Positions 4,100 through 61,665 of a DNA stretch of 64,000 nucleotides are shown one piece after another (the stretch's first letter is position 1; each line of letters begins with the position of its first letter). This stretch comes from a virus (lineage: Duplodnaviria; Caudoviricetes). Location of the stretch: positions 1-64,000 of IMG/VR virus record IMGVR_UViG_3300033120_000461; one strand, written 5' to 3'. The translations under genes and the position numbers were made by a program. The notes beneath the pieces were generated by a model, which saw only the letters and a program-made list of their open reading frames with translations, ran no database searches and was not told where the DNA came from.

Positions 4100-5854
4100 T
4101 CAGACCTTACCCTCCTCAGAGCGATTCTGGGCTTCAATGCTTTCCCATCTGGCGCAGAGGAACTGGTAGTATTCAAAGGGGGAAAGTGCATTTTCGTACA
4201 AGCCAATAGCCCATGCGTCGTTCACCTCCACAAGGGCAGTCTCACCCGTGGACAGGACGCCTACGTCAAGGGCAAATGGGTGGCCCAACTCTTCAAACAG
4301 AAGACGCGCCATCTCTTCCACAATAGCCATGTCGGGCTTAGGTGCGTCATCCTCACCATCCTCATCATAGCGACCTGATTTCAGGTTTCCAGGACCTGAA
4401 ACGTAGTATCGGTACTCAGAGACAAAATTGACTTTTGAGGAAACCCACAACATGGTCTGAGGCGGAAGGGAGTCAAAGACCTCTCTTTCCTTCGAATCAG
4501 ACTGCAACAGAAATCCTGTGAAGGTCTTGAGTTTGTCTGCTGGCTTCACGAACACGTCCTCAGACATGTTCAGATTCTCCTTGGTTGTCTGTTGGACATC
4601 TCGAAGCAAGAACCTTTGCAGCACATCAGGATAGCAATTCCAGACTGGTAGTTTCAGACCGAGTCTCGCCATGACTGCTTGAACAAACTCGACAGTCCCC
4701 ACAGGAACTCCATCAAGTTTGGACGTGTCTAGGGTAGGCACATCTTCAAGTTTGCATTGGTAACGGACGATGGTGTCATGGAGCATAGATGCATGATGCA
4801 CCTTGCTGACCTCGTAGGATCTCCCTTCCTCCATGCTTTGGAGGAGGACACTTCTAAGCTTTGGGCTCGGCACTAGTCCTGAGGCAAACTTGAGTGCTCC
4901 AAGTGCGCCCTTCACAGAGTGGGAGAACCACCAGACTTCCTTTCCAATAATCAGCTTGATGGGCCCCTTGAGCTGACCTATCTGTACCTCAACCGAAGGT
5001 TCACTGGATCCTTTCGGAGGGGTGTGGATCGTCCAATTGACTCGATTGTCTGGCTCCTTGAAGTACGGACACCAGTCATCGAAGACCACTCCCAGACCCA
5101 AATGCTTGGCGGGTTCAAAATGCTTGGGGATGTTCTCTTTGATAGCCAGAAAGATGGGGTCTGAGGCCTTGTATGCTGCCCATTCTTCATCTCTCTTCCG
5201 AGATGCAGCGGCACTCCTCTCCCGTCTTTCTTTCTCAGCAGGTTCCATCCATCTTTCCAGAGTCACCAAAGACATCCCCTCTCGTCTGTACTTGACCCAC
5301 GCGACTACCTTGTCTTCTTCATCCGACTCTTCCCCAGCCTCATCGTAGGAGTAGCCCATTTCGAAACAGGTGATTGTTCCGTCTGGGCTGATGTCAGGTT
5401 CCTTTGAGCCTGACATCAAAGGTTCCTCTTCCTCGTTGGCTGGTTTGATCTCCGGCCACCCTTCCATAGGGTTCGAGAAGTCAAAGAATCGATTCTCATA
5501 GGGGCAAGCCCAATGACAACCATCTACGACCAAGCACTGAAGTGTTGGACTCCACTTTGAACTTGCCCAACAAAATCCATCAGGTGACATGATGTCGACC
5601 CTCTTTCCAGTGTCTAGTTCAATGACTGTCTGCCCCATGTAGTGAGAACCACACACCAGGTAGTCATGCCCGTTGGGGTGCCCTTCTACAAAAGCGTAGG
5701 GGAAACTCCCATAGTTTCGGTTCACAGTCTCAATGACTTCACCATCAGAGCGACTCACAACTCCTGTTGCATAGTCCCAACACCCAGGCCGAGTCGCTTG
5801 CTTTGAGACCTCCAATTGGTAGTGGCCACTTGGACTCATGATTGTCTTTGTCAT
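4100..5854 (-). CDS. Fusion of an unknown N-terminal domain and a C-terminal ATP-grasp domain (R2K/DUF4343-like)
   Basis: C-terminal FVKPADKLKTFTG, SEYRYYV and ALDVGVLSTGETALVEVNDAWAIGLY. Start moved to ATG 5854 because the track's first 26 codons coincide with the tRNA. Confidence 0.75.
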   Translation of the reverse strand: MTKTIMSPSGHYQLEVSKQATRPGCWDYATGVVSRSDGEVIETVNRNYGSFPYAFVEGHPNGHDYLVCGSHYMGQTVIELDTGKRVDIMSPDGFCWASSKWSPTLQCLVVDGCHWACPYENRFFDFSNPMEGWPEIKPANEEEEPLMSGSKEPDISPDGTITCFEMGYSYDEAGEESDEEDKVVAWVKYRREGMSLVTLERWMEPAEKERRERSAAASRKRDEEWAAYKASDPIFLAIKENIPKHFEPAKHLGLGVVFDDWCPYFKEPDNRVNWTIHTPPKGSSEPSVEVQIGQLKGPIKLIIGKEVWWFSHSVKGALGALKFASGLVPSPKLRSVLLQSMEEGRSYEVSKVHHASMLHDTIVRYQCKLEDVPTLDTSKLDGVPVGTVEFVQAVMARLGLKLPVWNCYPDVLQRFLLRDVQQTTKENLNMSEDVFVKPADKLKTFTGFLLQSDSKEREVFDSLPPQTMLWVSSKVNFVSEYRYYVSGPGNLKSGRYDEDGEDDAPKPDMAIVEEMARLLFEELGHPFALDVGVLSTGETALVEVNDAWAIGLYENALSPFEYYQFLCARWESIEAQNRSEEGKV

Positions 5855-5855
5855 A

Positions 5856-5930
5856 TGGTCTTGGTGGGGTTCGAACCCACGGCTGTACTGGTTTAGAATC
5901 AGTTCCCTTGGACCACTCGGGCACAAGACC
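5856..5930 (-). tRNA. tRNA with CUA anticodon (amber suppressor)
   Basis: GGTCTTG TG CCC GAGTGGTCCAA GGG A ACTGA TTCTAAA CCAGT ACAGCC GTGGG TTCGAAC CCCAC CAAGACC A: 7-bp acceptor stem, D-arm with GG, anticodon loop TT-CTA-AA, perfect 5-bp T stem, A73, CCA not encoded. Confidence 0.9.
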
Positions 5931-57472: not shown

Positions 57473-57537
57473 CTTGTTGCTGAGAGATTGGATCAGCACA
57501 TCCATTTTCTTGTTGCTGAGGGATTGAGTCAGCACAC
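57473..57537. repeat. Dispersed palindromic element, tandem copies 3 and 4 (36-nt period)
   Basis: CTTGTTGCTGAGAGATTGGATCAGCACA (57473) and CTTGTTGCTGAGGGATTGAGTCAGCACA (57509), 25/28 identical. Confidence 0.85.
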
Positions 57538-57605: not shown

Positions 57606-58142
57606 TCATTTCTGCTTACTCTTTGAGACACTTTTTTTTGAAGCTCTCTTTTTTTTGGTTTCTTGGACAGTGCCTTTTGGTTTCCCTCTGGGAGTAGTGA
57701 ACGCTGCGTTCCCCCAACCAAGACGGATCCTGGCAAGCAGTCTGTCGTAAGAGATCTTCAGCTTCCGAGCCCAAGCTCTCTTGGTGCGGAGAACCCCATC
57801 GACCATGACCATATGGTCAGCATGGCTGTTTAGCCCTTGATTCTGTTGTGACGCTGTCTGCCAACTACACTCTCCGGGGCCATAGTCACTGAAAGGAGTG
57901 AGACGTCCTATGGTCTTGTTCGCAGGTCGTTCACCCATGTCCTGGAGGAAGTTCTCAAACTTGCGCCACCTCTCTACGACACAAACTCCAGCTCCCCCGT
58001 AGTTTTCGTAAGAGGGATGCTTCTTGTCGCAGCACCTTTGGATCATGGCTCTCCACGTGGTGTACGTGGGAGACTCTCTCCGACCATCCTCACGCATGGT
58101 GCGATGGCCATGCAAGTGACTCGGGTGCCTATTCTTCTTCAT
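57606..58142 (-). CDS. HNH-homing-endonuclease-related protein with a basic tail
   Basis: PTYTTWRAMIQRC...YENYGGAGVCVVERWRKFENFLQDMGERP...TIGR...CSWQTASQQ. Confidence 0.7.
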   Translation of the reverse strand: MKKNRHPSHLHGHRTMREDGRRESPTYTTWRAMIQRCCDKKHPSYENYGGAGVCVVERWRKFENFLQDMGERPANKTIGRLTPFSDYGPGECSWQTASQQNQGLNSHADHMVMVDGVLRTKRAWARKLKISYDRLLARIRLGWGNAAFTTPRGKPKGTVQETKKKRASKKSVSKSKQK

Positions 58143-58986
58143 CGAAACCCAGAAGTCCCCCAAGACTTGTTGGGGCGCTAACAACTTGAGGTGTCACAAC
58201 CTCCTCCCACACACCACCTCTCTTTGGGAGCGTGAAGATTTCCCCGAGAGGAGCAAGACGTTCTTTTGCTACCTCCAAGGACTTGGGGGATATGTCGCAG
58301 CCAGCAAAGGACCGGCCGGACTTCAACGCAGCTTCACCACAAGATGCAGATCCCATGAATGGGTCAATCACCAGGTCTCCTGGATTGCTGGAGTTTTCGA
58401 TCAGGGTTCGTAGGAGTGAGACGGGCTTCTCAGTTGGGTATGCCTTATCCACTCTCGGTGCAGGGAGAACATCAGGCCACCCCAGATGGTTGAGTTTCCG
58501 CTTTCCCTTTTCAAGGAAGGAGATCTCCTCCTTCGAGTTCCGCCAATGGTACCCCATACCAATCTTGACATCATCCTCGGACAGTTCCTTTTCAGGATCA
58601 ATGACCTCGCCATCGTCCTTCCCACATACCTTCACCCATGAAAGACTCTTCCAGAAGACAAACCCAGCCTCACGGCCCATGGGCCTGACCACATCGATCA
58701 TGGTCTCTTGGTCAGAAATCATGTAGAGATGGGAGTTCTTCTTCAGAACACGGTAGATTTCTGAGAGCAGTTCAGGAACCCTATGGTTCCTGAAGATCTC
58801 GAACCATTCGTTCGAGGAGCCATCACTGACCTTCAGTCGAGTCGTGGTTCCCTTACTCCGATGCTTCTCCAAGCTCTCATATGCGTAGTCCGTGACACAC
58901 AAGTCTACACTCTCATCTGGTAGAGTTTTCAACCACGCCACGCTGTCCATTTGAGTGAGTGAGAACTTGGAAGGTTTATCAGTCAT
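58129..58986 (-). CDS. Beta-class DNA amino-methyltransferase (N4-C/N6-A) with variant motif IV
   Basis: DSVAWLKTLPDESVDLCVTDYAY, YPTEKPVSLL, VIDPFMGSAS. Ends in TAG. Confidence 0.85.
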   Translation of the reverse strand: MTDKPSKFSLTQMDSVAWLKTLPDESVDLCVTDYAYESLEKHRSKGTTTRLKVSDGSSNEWFEIFRNHRVPELLSEIYRVLKKNSHLYMISDQETMIDVVRPMGREAGFVFWKSLSWVKVCGKDDGEVIDPEKELSEDDVKIGMGYHWRNSKEEISFLEKGKRKLNHLGWPDVLPAPRVDKAYPTEKPVSLLRTLIENSSNPGDLVIDPFMGSASCGEAALKSGRSFAGCDISPKSLEVAKERLAPLGEIFTLPKRGGVWEEVVTPQVVSAPTSLGGLLGFDEEE

Positions 58987-59001
58987 TGCTGTCTCCTAGA
59001 A

Positions 59002-59069
59002 TGGACCTTGACGGAATCGAACCGCCACCCCCGCCAATGCAGGGACGCTCCCAAAATAAGCCTAGGCCC
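59002..59069 (-). ncRNA. tRNA-Ala-like RNA with a collapsed anticodon loop
   Basis: GGGCCT AG GCTT ATTTTGG GAGC GT CCCTGC ATTG GCGGGG GT GGCGG TTCGATT CCGTC A AGGTCC A: G3-U70, A73, D-arm and T-arm present, 4-nt central loop. Confidence 0.6.
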
Positions 59070-59090
59070 TAGAAACCTCAAACTTAGCCT

Positions 59091-59354
59091 ATGAAAAATC
59101 CACACTGGTTCGTGTACGTCTTGCAAGGTTCTGGAAAGCCCGTGTTCTACACGGGCTGCACCACAGACCTATCCAGAAGGATTCTCCAACACAATGGAAA
59201 AATGGAGGGAGGAGCAAAGTTCACCAGACAATACCGACCTTGGGTAGTGGCTAAGATCTACGGACCCTTCCCCGATAGAAGTGCTGCTCAGAAGGCTGAG
59301 TACAAAGTGAAGAGACTTCGAGGCCCCAAGAGACTCCAATGGTCAGGGCTTTGA
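59091..59354 (+). CDS. GIY-YIG nuclease (Slx1/YhbQ-like)
   Basis: WFVYVLQ...FYTGCTTDLSRRILQHNG...GGAKFTRQYRPW...AQKAEYKVK. Confidence 0.9.
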   Translation: MKNPHWFVYVLQGSGKPVFYTGCTTDLSRRILQHNGKMEGGAKFTRQYRPWVVAKIYGPFPDRSAAQKAEYKVKRLRGPKRLQWSGL

Positions 59355-59445
59355 TTCTGGTTGGTCTGGTTGGCTGCAACTCTTTGGTACTGGTTGCGTG
59401 GCAAGGAGACCCGTTGGGGGAGGTCTTTGTTGAGTTTGGTTGTCA

Positions 59446-59811
59446 TCAACCGAACTCAACCCGAGTCAAGAAGAGCACGCCATTTTCAATCCTGGCTTGT
59501 CTCTTCTCGATATTCTCTGGTGGTGGGCTGTAGGTGTCCTCATCTACTGTGGCATTCGCATTCGTCTGAGGTACTTCCGTACCCACACGGCCAGGACCAC
59601 GCTTGTTGACCACACGAACAAGGGCATTGAACTCCAACTGACGATCTCGATCGAACGTCCAGCAATGGCGCCCTTTCCTCTGCTTTGTGGCCTTGTTGTC
59701 GAACTCCGAATGCCAAGCAATCACGCTTCGTACAATGGAACCCAAAGGGCTCTCTTTCCAGACAACACCATTGGAGGCCAAGACCTCAACACCACAGAAG
59801 GCACATTTCAT
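59446..59811 (-). CDS. Hypothetical protein
   Basis: GAGG SD; MKCAFCG start; favoured over the antisense 59440-59817 ORF. Confidence 0.5.
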   Translation of the reverse strand: MKCAFCGVEVLASNGVVWKESPLGSIVRSVIAWHSEFDNKATKQRKGRHCWTFDRDRQLEFNALVRVVNKRGPGRVGTEVPQTNANATVDEDTYSPPPENIEKRQARIENGVLFLTRVEFG

Positions 59812-59820
59812 AGCTGAACC

Positions 59821-60216
59821 TCATTCCTTTTTTGCACACTCAGGTTTCCAGGTAAGCAAACCCTCTTCAGATGTACGCTGGAAACCATTTTTCAGGTAGA
59901 ACCGTTTCTGATCTTCAGGATCCTCGCCATACCCACCAGGTGTGACAACCACCAGTTGTGGTGACTGCTCCCAAGCAGCCTTGAGTGCTGCCTGAAGAAT
60001 CAGGCTACCTGCCCCTTGGCCTCTTCCAAAACTATGAGGCACGTTCACCCGATTGATGTACCAGCACTTCCCAGAGGTAGGCAATCCAGGTACCTTCAAA
60101 ATCTCTGCATCAATGAGGGTCAGGGATGCGATGGCTAGACGATGACCTTTAACCAAGCTTGCCGAAACCTCCATATCGTTGCGGTTGACATGGACTGGTA
60201 GGGCAAGCTCATTCAT
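59821..60216 (-). CDS. GNAT acetyltransferase
   Basis: WYINRVNVPHSFGRGQGAGSLIL and FYLKNGF; start moved to ATG 60216. Confidence 0.85.
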   Translation of the reverse strand: MNELALPVHVNRNDMEVSASLVKGHRLAIASLTLIDAEILKVPGLPTSGKCWYINRVNVPHSFGRGQGAGSLILQAALKAAWEQSPQLVVVTPGGYGEDPEDQKRFYLKNGFQRTSEEGLLTWKPECAKKE

Positions 60217-60727
60217 GTGGATCGCCTTCATCAAGGGCACAGAAACAATCTTGCATGAGCGCTGACTGCTTCTGCACCTCATCATCCTCTTCTGAAATGC
60301 GGAACCCATGAGAGGTCACTTCCACAGGAGTCATCTTACCCCCATTGTAGTCAAACACCCTCACGTTGCTGCGGTGGATGGTCTCTACCGTTGTGTAGCT
60401 GGTTCTCAACCGTAAGTTGGGTAGTTGGTTGAGCATGATGCACAGGGATAGCTCGCGCACCACCACGTCACTCTCTGTGAACAGAAGCACAGGCCCATGA
60501 GTGCACCTCTCTACAGCGGCACGAGTTTCCCTCCGAGCTTGACGAACACTCAACGCGCCCGAGACTTCAAGAGAAACTCTGTTTTGCCCACGTGCGATGT
60601 CAACAAGTGGTGTACACAGCTTCTTCATCCCAAATACGATGACAAGCTGAGCACTCTCCAACGCCTCTCTTAGACTGCTGCTTGGTTTGTGTTCAGAAAA
60701 CGTCCTGGTACCCATGGATTCAATCAT
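60209..60727 (-). CDS. Hypothetical protein resembling the C-terminal part of ABC/AAA_15-type ATPases
   Basis: LLFTESDVVVRELSLCIML...Y...E...VRVF...GFRI..DDEV; no Walker A. Confidence 0.5.
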   Translation of the reverse strand: MIESMGTRTFSEHKPSSSLREALESAQLVIVFGMKKLCTPLVDIARGQNRVSLEVSGALSVRQARRETRAAVERCTHGPVLLFTESDVVVRELSLCIMLNQLPNLRLRTSYTTVETIHRSNVRVFDYNGGKMTPVEVTSHGFRISEEDDEVQKQSALMQDCFCALDEGDPHE

Positions 60728-61665
60728 CGTACGAGCTTACGGAAGGTGAGTGAGATGCGCCCATCACACTCAGTGTGGTGCTTTGGGATCTTGTGGAGGT
60801 GTGTGTCCTGATAACCACCTGGCATCACGAACAGACCACCTTGGGTCATGAGGTACTTTCCAGAGTCTGGGACATCACCCTTGTCGCCCCTCTTCTTGGT
60901 GTAGAGGTAGCGCTCCGCCCCAAACGAGATCACGGCAATCGGGTGTTGCAAGTCCTGCTCTGGCGAGTCATCAGCATGCCAACCAAGGTGTTGGAAGCGG
61001 TCTTTGTAGTAGTTGAGTACGCATACGTTGTACTCTGTACCCCTCTGGTTGAGCTTCTCCATGATGGACAAAACCGCAGGGTGCATCTCTACCGCATGGT
61101 AAGTGTGGAGTGCTTCCCTTGTCTCGTTGTTGTTGCCATACGAGTACGACTGAGGCGCATTCTCCGAAGCCATGAAGCACTCATCTCTGGGTGCAGAACG
61201 GTTCACCCAGGCTACCTCGTCACGAAGAACGGGGAAGAGGTTGAGTGTTACGAACTCTGGTTCGAATGTAGGGGTCGTCATTGGCAAGACTCTGGGGATG
61301 GGTAGATGGTTTTGAGCGATGTCGCTGAAGTCGATCTTGTATACAGAGAGCAACTTCAGATCAATATCCAGTTCGAGAACATGAAGGAAACCACTTCGAA
61401 TCGATGAATACAAGTCGAATTCAAGGAATTCGTCTTTTAGTATGTCAACATCCACCTGGGAGATGGTGGACACAAGAAAGACCAGACAGTCCTTCAGGAT
61501 GTTGCACATGTAGTACAGGTTCAGACCTTGAGGGGTCTGTGCGATGTAGATAACTGGCACCCCATCGTACTCGAATATGACCTCGTGAGGTTCATGTGCT
61601 TCGATACCCTCAAGAGGGTAGACCACGGCATCAGGCTTGAGGTGTGAACTACCTGAGTACATCAT
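60724..61665 (-). CDS. alkB: AlkB-family 2OG-Fe(II) dioxygenase with an N-terminal extra domain
   Basis: CVLNYYKD, LGWHADD (HxD), IAVISFGAER, HLHKIPK, RISLTFR. Confidence 0.9.
   Translation of the reverse strand: MMYSGSSHLKPDAVVYPLEGIEAHEPHEVIFEYDGVPVIYIAQTPQGLNLYYMCNILKDCLVFLVSTISQVDVDILKDEFLEFDLYSSIRSGFLHVLELDIDLKLLSVYKIDFSDIAQNHLPIPRVLPMTTPTFEPEFVTLNLFPVLRDEVAWVNRSAPRDECFMASENAPQSYSYGNNNETREALHTYHAVEMHPAVLSIMEKLNQRGTEYNVCVLNYYKDRFQHLGWHADDSPEQDLQHPIAVISFGAERYLYTKKRGDKGDVPDSGKYLMTQGGLFVMPGGYQDTHLHKIPKHHTECDGRISLTFRKLVR

Follow-up and report, generated by a model that had tools for sequence, protein, structure and literature searches.

A 68-nt element derived from a tRNA-Ala gene in front of a DNA methyltransferase gene of a jumbo phage

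The locus and the anatomy of the element

The window, i.e., the whole 64-kb stretch of DNA analyzed here, corresponds to the first 64 kb of an IMG/VR record of 73,282 bases. The CheckV completeness of this record is 14%, indicating that it is a fragment of a jumbo phage genome. A tRNA-like element is located on the minus strand between the gene of a DNA methyltransferase and the divergent gene of a small GIY-YIG nuclease, with the following features:

58129..58986, minus strand: N6/N4 DNA methyltransferase gene (Pfam PF01555, E=7e-26; PHROG 67)
58987..59001, minus strand: 15-nt spacer with the methyltransferase Shine-Dalgarno (SD) sequence AGGAG at 58993-58997 (sequence)
59002..59069, minus strand: whole element, a 68-nt pseudo-tRNA derived from tRNA-Ala (Rfam RF00005 end to end, cloverleaf MFE)
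59002..59008, minus strand: acceptor 3' strand AGGUCC, with U70 at 59005 and the discriminator A73 at 59002 (sequence)
59009..59027, minus strand: T arm (U)GGCGG / UUCGAUU / CCGUC(A) (Rfam alignment, MFE fold)
59028..59045, minus strand: remodelled "anticodon" arm, a 7-bp hairpin UCCCUGC/GCGGGGG with the loop AUUG at 59035-59038 (sequence, MFE)
59047..59061, minus strand: D arm GCUU / AUUUUGG / GAGC (Rfam alignment, relaxed ARAGORN, MFE fold)
59064..59069, minus strand: acceptor 5' strand GGGCCU, with G3 at 59067 (sequence; invariant in four of four copies)
59091..59354, plus strand: GIY-YIG nuclease gene, 87 aa, divergent and 21 nt away from the element's 5' end (Pfam PF01541, E=1e-13)

The cloverleaf described in the original prediction was recovered in all its parts when reading the minus strand from 59069 to 59002: G3-U70, A73, a 6-bp acceptor helix, a 4-bp D stem, the canonical T arm GGCGG-UUCGAUU-CCGUC and an anticodon arm still paired around a 4-nt loop, (U)CCCUGC-AUUG-GCGGGG(G). 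The acceptor stem, which includes G3·U70 in its 6 bp, is followed by a mismatch at 7:66 (A·A in the window, A·G in the relatives of the element described below). The four pairs of the D stem are invariant in the four copies, and the D loop, AUUUUGG, contains the GG doublet. The T stem includes one G·U pair and is extended to 6 bp by U43-A61, where a U·G is possible in the relatives; in the MFE fold, the acceptor/T stack thus reaches 6+6 = 12 bp. The variable region has nearly disappeared, with 0-1 nt between the hairpin and the T stem, and CCA is not encoded, A73 being followed by UUC in the window and by UGA in the relatives. The MFE structure of the 68 nt is the cloverleaf itself (-30.8 kcal/mol, z=-2.34), and 2 of 200 shuffled sequences folded equally well.

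The distance of 16 nt to the methyltransferase start was also confirmed, the ATG being at 58986 and A73 at 59002, with the SD sequence AGGAG in between. Since the element directly precedes this SD sequence and has the same orientation as a long series of minus-strand genes, it would probably be transcribed within the methyltransferase leader, together with the rest of the minus-strand operon. No sigma-70-like promoter was detected in 58000-60500 with a consensus that phage promoters may not match. A 7-nt direct repeat, TTCTAGG, flanks the element on the minus strand (59068-59074 and 58995-59001); its upstream copy extends into G1G2 and its downstream copy into the SD sequence, and the relatives share CTAGG only. 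This repeat could be a target-site duplication, an insertion microhomology, or due to chance.

With permissive settings, the Rfam tRNA model RF00005 aligned the element end to end with a score of 17.3 bits, the gathering score being 29 bits. When this model alone was run on the whole 73,282-base record, the element obtained E=0.028 and was the sole match at E<=10 besides the real tRNA. Rfam at gathering scores did not call the element, the one tRNA called in the window being tRNA(CUA) at 5856-5930, and default ARAGORN called no tRNA at the element, either in the window or in the relatives; relaxed ARAGORN drew the same cloverleaf. The element was also absent from the all-family Rfam scan of the window at E<=10, because the E-value is then scaled by 4,227 families. 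Its T-loop 11-mer, GGTTCGANTCC, occurs once in the window for 0.2 expected. No tmRNA was found by ARAGORN, and the best Rfam match for the element within the clan was tRNA.

The short loop, for which the original prediction had called for verification, is not an assembly error, since an independent 302-nt contig from the library of another study corresponds to 58961-59262 with zero differences. Identical short contigs over 57.6-59.3 kb, one of them spanning 58961-59262, were present in two wastewater metatranscriptome runs. These runs were selected using this very stretch, their contigs come without strand or end information and phage DNA may be present; they are evidence neither for nor against expression.

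The sole bona fide tRNA of the window (5856-5930, minus strand, 56.8 bits, CCA not encoded) has the anticodon CUA and is thus an amber suppressor, labeled "Pyl" by ARAGORN. TAG still terminates 15 of the 71 long ORFs in the window, such that wholesale recoding is not evident. The echo between the two loci noted in the original prediction is real: tRNA(CUA) ends with its discriminator at 5856 and an in-frame ATG is located one base past it, at 5854, opening a 584-aa protein with an R2K-clade ATP-grasp domain. There is no SD sequence between this tRNA and the ATG, such that a cut by RNase Z would leave an almost leaderless mRNA. A tRNA-shaped RNA abutting a start codon was thus observed in two cases in the record.

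Ancestry and loss of decoding

We collected from viral and prokaryotic genome collections the real tRNAs sharing the 3' half of the element, GGTTCGATTCC....AGGTCCA, 82 of which were recognised by ARAGORN. tRNA-Ala represented 72 of these 82 tRNAs, and the 5' end GGGCCU followed by A or G was present in 59 of them, all tRNA-Ala. Two related jumbo-phage records carry 34 and 2 tRNA genes, respectively, and the best global match of the element among their 41 distinct tRNAs was tRNA-Ala(GGC), with a score of 20 (10 for the runner-up). These comparisons support the tRNA-Ala derivation proposed in the original prediction, and we conclude from the sequences that the element descends from a tRNA-Ala gene, from which G3·U70 and A73 are inherited.

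The element shares with canonical bacterial and phage tRNA-Ala the GGGCCU/AGGUCC acceptor, the T arm and a D arm with GG. The features of tRNA-Ala identity, G3·U70 (59067/59005), A73, and G2-C71, are all present and invariant in the four copies, and CCA is unencoded as in the real tRNA of this phage. In contrast to canonical tRNA-Ala, the element has neither a 7-nt anticodon loop nor an anticodon, its variable region is reduced to 0-1 nt and its position 7:66 is mismatched; it obtained 17 bits versus 46-69 bits for the above-cut-off tRNAs of related phages. No register fits a 5-bp stem with a 7-nt loop and U33, either in the window copy or in the relatives, and the best register around a 7-nt loop gives at most three of five pairs. 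The non-decoding character originally suggested is thus borne out by the absence of any copy with a 7-nt loop and by the almost complete loss of the variable region.

Compared to the tRNA family RF00005, the element lacks the score, the anticodon loop, the variable region and the 7-bp acceptor, and has the T-arm loop UUCGAUU and the D-loop GG, both invariant in the four copies. Homology to one isotype combined with the loss of the anticodon loop corresponds to a pseudo-tRNA, and the element is a tRNA-Ala relic that cannot decode. It has retained the coaxial acceptor/T stack of about 12 bp, with its T loop, of an RNase P or RNase Z substrate. Pseudo-tRNAs, which are usually discarded by annotation pipelines, and tRNA-like relics are already known, and the element is one more case; it illustrates that a match under the threshold can correspond to a genuine derivative of a tRNA, the isotype of which can be traced.

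Close relatives, distribution and constraint

Three contigs from other samples (L147, L148, and L149), reached via the neighbouring 121-aa ORFan, whose homologues are restricted to the same clade, contain the same block as the window: the 121-aa gene, the GIY-YIG gene on the opposite strand, the element and the methyltransferase gene. The GIY-YIG gene, which is without visible SD sequence, is intact in all four copies. In the relatives, the element is 70 nt long (16.1 bits with the Rfam tRNA model for L148), with two extra bases, GU, in the 3' strand of the hairpin, which folds either with a longer stem and a 6-nt loop or as a bulged stem. As GU is also present in L147, the most distant copy by GIY-YIG comparison, the 4-nt loop of the window is most simply explained by a further 2-nt deletion. 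The spacer before the methyltransferase gene has 5 extra bases and 2 substitutions in the relatives, with the SD sequence kept. Being of 2 nt (within the element) and 5 nt (next to it), these indels exclude a protein-coding reading. The original prediction had named a normal 7-nt loop in relatives and neutral drift of this copy as arguments against it. No relative has a normal loop, their arm being 2 nt longer and non-canonical, and the arm does drift by indels, with the remaining stems staying paired.

The intergenic DNA of the block around the element turns over quickly by indels. The window (59412-59460 region, alignment columns 41-83) lacks 43 nt that all three relatives have in the interval separating the 121-aa stop codon from the GIY-YIG 3' end, and L147 has two more insertions in this interval.

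Six substitutions and one indel separate the four copies of the element, whose mean identity is 97%. Two substitutions are at unpaired junction positions and one is at 7:66, where it turns the possible U·G into U43-A61 in the window, bringing the T stem to 6 bp. The three pair changes observed among the copies are all in the T stem; two Watson-Crick pairs became G·U and thus stay paired, and one pair is broken to C·A, in L147 only. All other stem pairs are intact. The search for homologs and covariation put forward in the original prediction was therefore successful for the former, with L147, L148, and L149, and yielded no covariation, since the four sequences, with zero pairs changed on both sides, are too similar to yield any.

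We compared the proportions of variable sites among the window, L147, and L148 (Fisher p values versus the element). The element has 5 variable sites out of 68, the four-fold sites of the GIY-YIG gene 6/38 (p=0.20), those of the 121-aa gene (o59446) 8/56 (p=0.25), those of the methyltransferase gene 36/129 (p=0.0007), and the two flanking spacers 8/36 (p=0.057). The element is thus less variable than nearby neutral sites, significantly so versus the methyltransferase only, and its conservation is average among the 68-nt segments of the syntenic region (72nd percentile with L148 and 44th with L147). Divergence differs strongly from gene to gene around the element, which points to recombination. 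Given this uneven divergence and the average percentile, the signal of purifying selection on the element is suggestive, not firm.

The divergent GIY-YIG/methyltransferase pair (57606-59354 in the window) recurs without the element in two more distant phage contigs, L414:1172-2789 and L416:2218-3343. In L416, the nuclease is 68% identical, the methyltransferase 75%, and the start codons are 22 nt apart; in L414, the corresponding values are 60%, about 75%, and ~565 nt, the spacer containing two small ORFs and no tRNA-like sequence. The length of this spacer is therefore 22 nt in L416, 104 nt in the window, and 565 nt in L414. Together with the HNH endonuclease encoded downstream of the methyltransferase in the window, the pair looks like a small selfish or restriction-modification-like module. 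Two syntenic loci whose methyltransferase is 80% identical (L002 and L059) lack both the nuclease and the element. More generally, the element was absent upstream of the methyltransferase in 137 other loci, including these two, and a methyltransferase-anchored search covering 41 viral and 80 metagenome loci did not recover it. The element is thus a lineage-specific occupant of the GIY-YIG/methyltransferase spacer, outside the conserved module. It is young and confined to a narrow jumbo-phage lineage, in which it was found in independent samples.

Searches by sequence gave a consistent picture. The 3' 25-mer of the element had zero exact matches in viral contigs, and its odd 16-mer arm had 16, about the number expected by chance, none of them in a tRNA-like context. 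By blastn against 50,697 phage records, the element matched ordinary tRNAs in the T arm only, over 19-33 nt, and its 2.5-kb neighbourhood had no match. A GIY-YIG-anchored search recovered no viral locus, and no tRNA was found near seven relatives of the GIY-YIG protein or near its Rhizobium phage homologues. The idea of a GIY-YIG nuclease family travelling with tRNA genes was dropped, as homologues elsewhere have no adjacent tRNA.

Upstream of the element, an accessory block on the minus strand (59821-61665) encodes a small, ~130-aa protein that matches GNAT weakly, along with an AlkB-like 2OG-Fe(II) oxygenase (PHROG "alkylated DNA repair"); in L147, most of this block (about 60.2-62.1 kb) is replaced by unrelated genes. 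At 57473-57536, we observed a tandem pair of 28-nt hairpin-like repeats with a 36-nt period and 89% identity, a 30-nt unit of which has short matches in several other contigs of two runs, indicating a dispersed repeat of this phage group.

Possible roles of the element

We consider it probable that the element is a relic without any trans-acting aminoacyl role, a reading within which a complete lack of function and a cis-acting role, in processing or as a structural element, are about equally likely. Among the proposals of the original prediction, a processing signal and a decayed gene whose stems have survived fit the data best. Indels would have rebuilt the anticodon arm and the variable region into a plain hairpin, and the top half has stayed intact, with the 12-bp acceptor/T stack, the T loop and the D-loop GG forming the elbow. 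This half of a tRNA is the part recognised by RNase P, RNase Z, the CCA-adding enzyme, AlaRS and EF-Tu. The element is thus possibly kept as an RNase P/Z processing element, or as a structural one, in the methyltransferase leader, and any action would be in cis. Cleavage at G1 and past A73 would release a methyltransferase mRNA whose 15-nt leader includes the SD sequence; likewise, a cut at tRNA(CUA) would leave the AUG of the next gene 1 nt from the cut. Judging from its anatomy, we infer that a cis-acting processing or structural module would be the most economical functional reading, although four of the six substitutions fall in the top half, whose conservation is needed for processing. 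It is equally simple to regard the element as a neutral relic that has not had time to decay.

There are several precedents for a tRNA-like module directly beside an mRNA, such as mitochondrial tRNA punctuation, the mascRNA of MALAT1, and tRNA-mRNA co-transcripts, e.g., the E. coli tufB operon. The case of mascRNA, in which a degenerate anticodon arm coexists with an intact top half used by RNase P, RNase Z and the CCA enzyme, is similar to the arrangement described here. Processing has been demonstrated in these systems, whereas in the phage element it would be suggested by the anatomy. Another precedent, for a relic gaining a new use, is tRNA-Other, which is also an inactivated tRNA gene, not engaged in translation and located inside or next to a longer transcript. 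In contrast to the phage element, tRNA-Other is chromosomal, flanks a genomic island, keeps its anticodon arm and has phenotypes and mapped transcripts. At 68 nt, with alanine identity, its top half intact and its anticodon missing, the element is a compact test object that could show if tRNA relics are put to new use by phages, either to direct mRNA processing or to serve as mimics that can be charged. The simplest view being that of an ordinary relic, its value lies in such a test and not in a demonstrated new mechanism.

It is rather unlikely that the element matters at the DNA level only, as a recombination scar or target whose RNA would have no role, either because an element integrated into a tRNA gene left a hybrid tRNA or because a piece of tRNA was captured at a break made by the GIY-YIG or HNH nuclease. 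Two features of the location of the element would be consistent with such an origin: the spacer it fills measures just 22 nt in L416, and the accessory block around it differs between relatives. It would also fit the 7-nt direct repeat TTCTAGG bracketing the element in the window, although this repeat is short, overlaps the SD sequence and may be due to chance, CTAGG alone being shared with the relatives. The anticodon arm, in which many integrases cross over, is the oddest part of the element. However, there is no integrase nearby and no second copy of either tRNA half in the 73-kb record, the GIY-YIG homologues elsewhere have no adjacent tRNA, and an origin of this kind leaves the slightly reduced variation unexplained. 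Prokaryotic genomes commonly contain tRNA fragments that stem from integration events (PMC9897764). The partial or non-canonical tRNAs described there resemble the element in being tRNA-like, in occurring in variable genome regions and in scoring below or near detection thresholds; they usually correspond to halves duplicated at the ends of the integrated element (PMC9897764), whereas the phage element is full length and without second half in the record. An integration scar proper is not supported, as the record contains neither a second tRNA half nor an att-like repeat.

The third reading to be considered is a chargeable mimic: the excised 68-nt RNA would receive CCA, be alanylated by the host AlaRS via G3·U70 and A73, and act off the ribosome. 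AlaRS charges mini- and microhelices with G3·U70, and both CCA-adding enzymes and EF-Tu read the top half only. Accordingly with such a use, G1-C72, G2-C71, G3·U70 and A73 are invariant in the four copies, the acceptor/T stack still has 12 bp (6+6 with U43-A61), the T loop and the D-loop GG are intact and the element varies less than the four-fold sites of the methyltransferase gene. A small GNAT-like protein is encoded 750 nt upstream, though with no more specific match, and no Fem/MurM-like, aaPGS-like or L/F-transferase-like partner was identified. G3·U70 and A73 would also be expected in a mere relic, being inherited from the tRNA-Ala ancestor; moreover, 7:66 is mismatched in every copy, and the element is confined to four contigs that are almost identical, being absent from relatives that have this gene pair. 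The tRNA-like domain of tmRNA has the same alanine identity via G3·U70 without anticodon, but the phage element is a closed 68-nt cloverleaf without mRNA-like domain, tag frame or pseudoknots. A chargeable mimic thus appears distinctly unlikely. Phage tRNA genes are now discussed as counter-measures to host tRNA-targeting defences. The specific scenario in which RNase P and RNase Z would cut from the methyltransferase leader a stable, CCA-tailed and alanine-charged mimic without anticodon is, in our opinion, very improbable, and so is its use off the ribosome, as a decoy for a host factor or a defence nuclease binding the acceptor/T half or as an alanine donor for a transferase.

Finally, a chance cloverleaf without tRNA descent is hardly credible. 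The score of the element is under both the Rfam gathering score and the ARAGORN default threshold, but its E-value of 0.028 across the whole record, the exact 11-mer match of the T loop, the acceptor sequence of tRNA-Ala class, and the D-loop GG with the lengths of the four helices all in register argue against coincidence.

A related jumbo phage (G002, the record of L003) carries an array of 34 tRNA hits at 77.9-86.9 kb, including suppressor-type CUA tRNAs, and two hits that, at 28.2 and 27.9 bits, fall just short of the Rfam cut-off may represent additional tRNA genes in decay.
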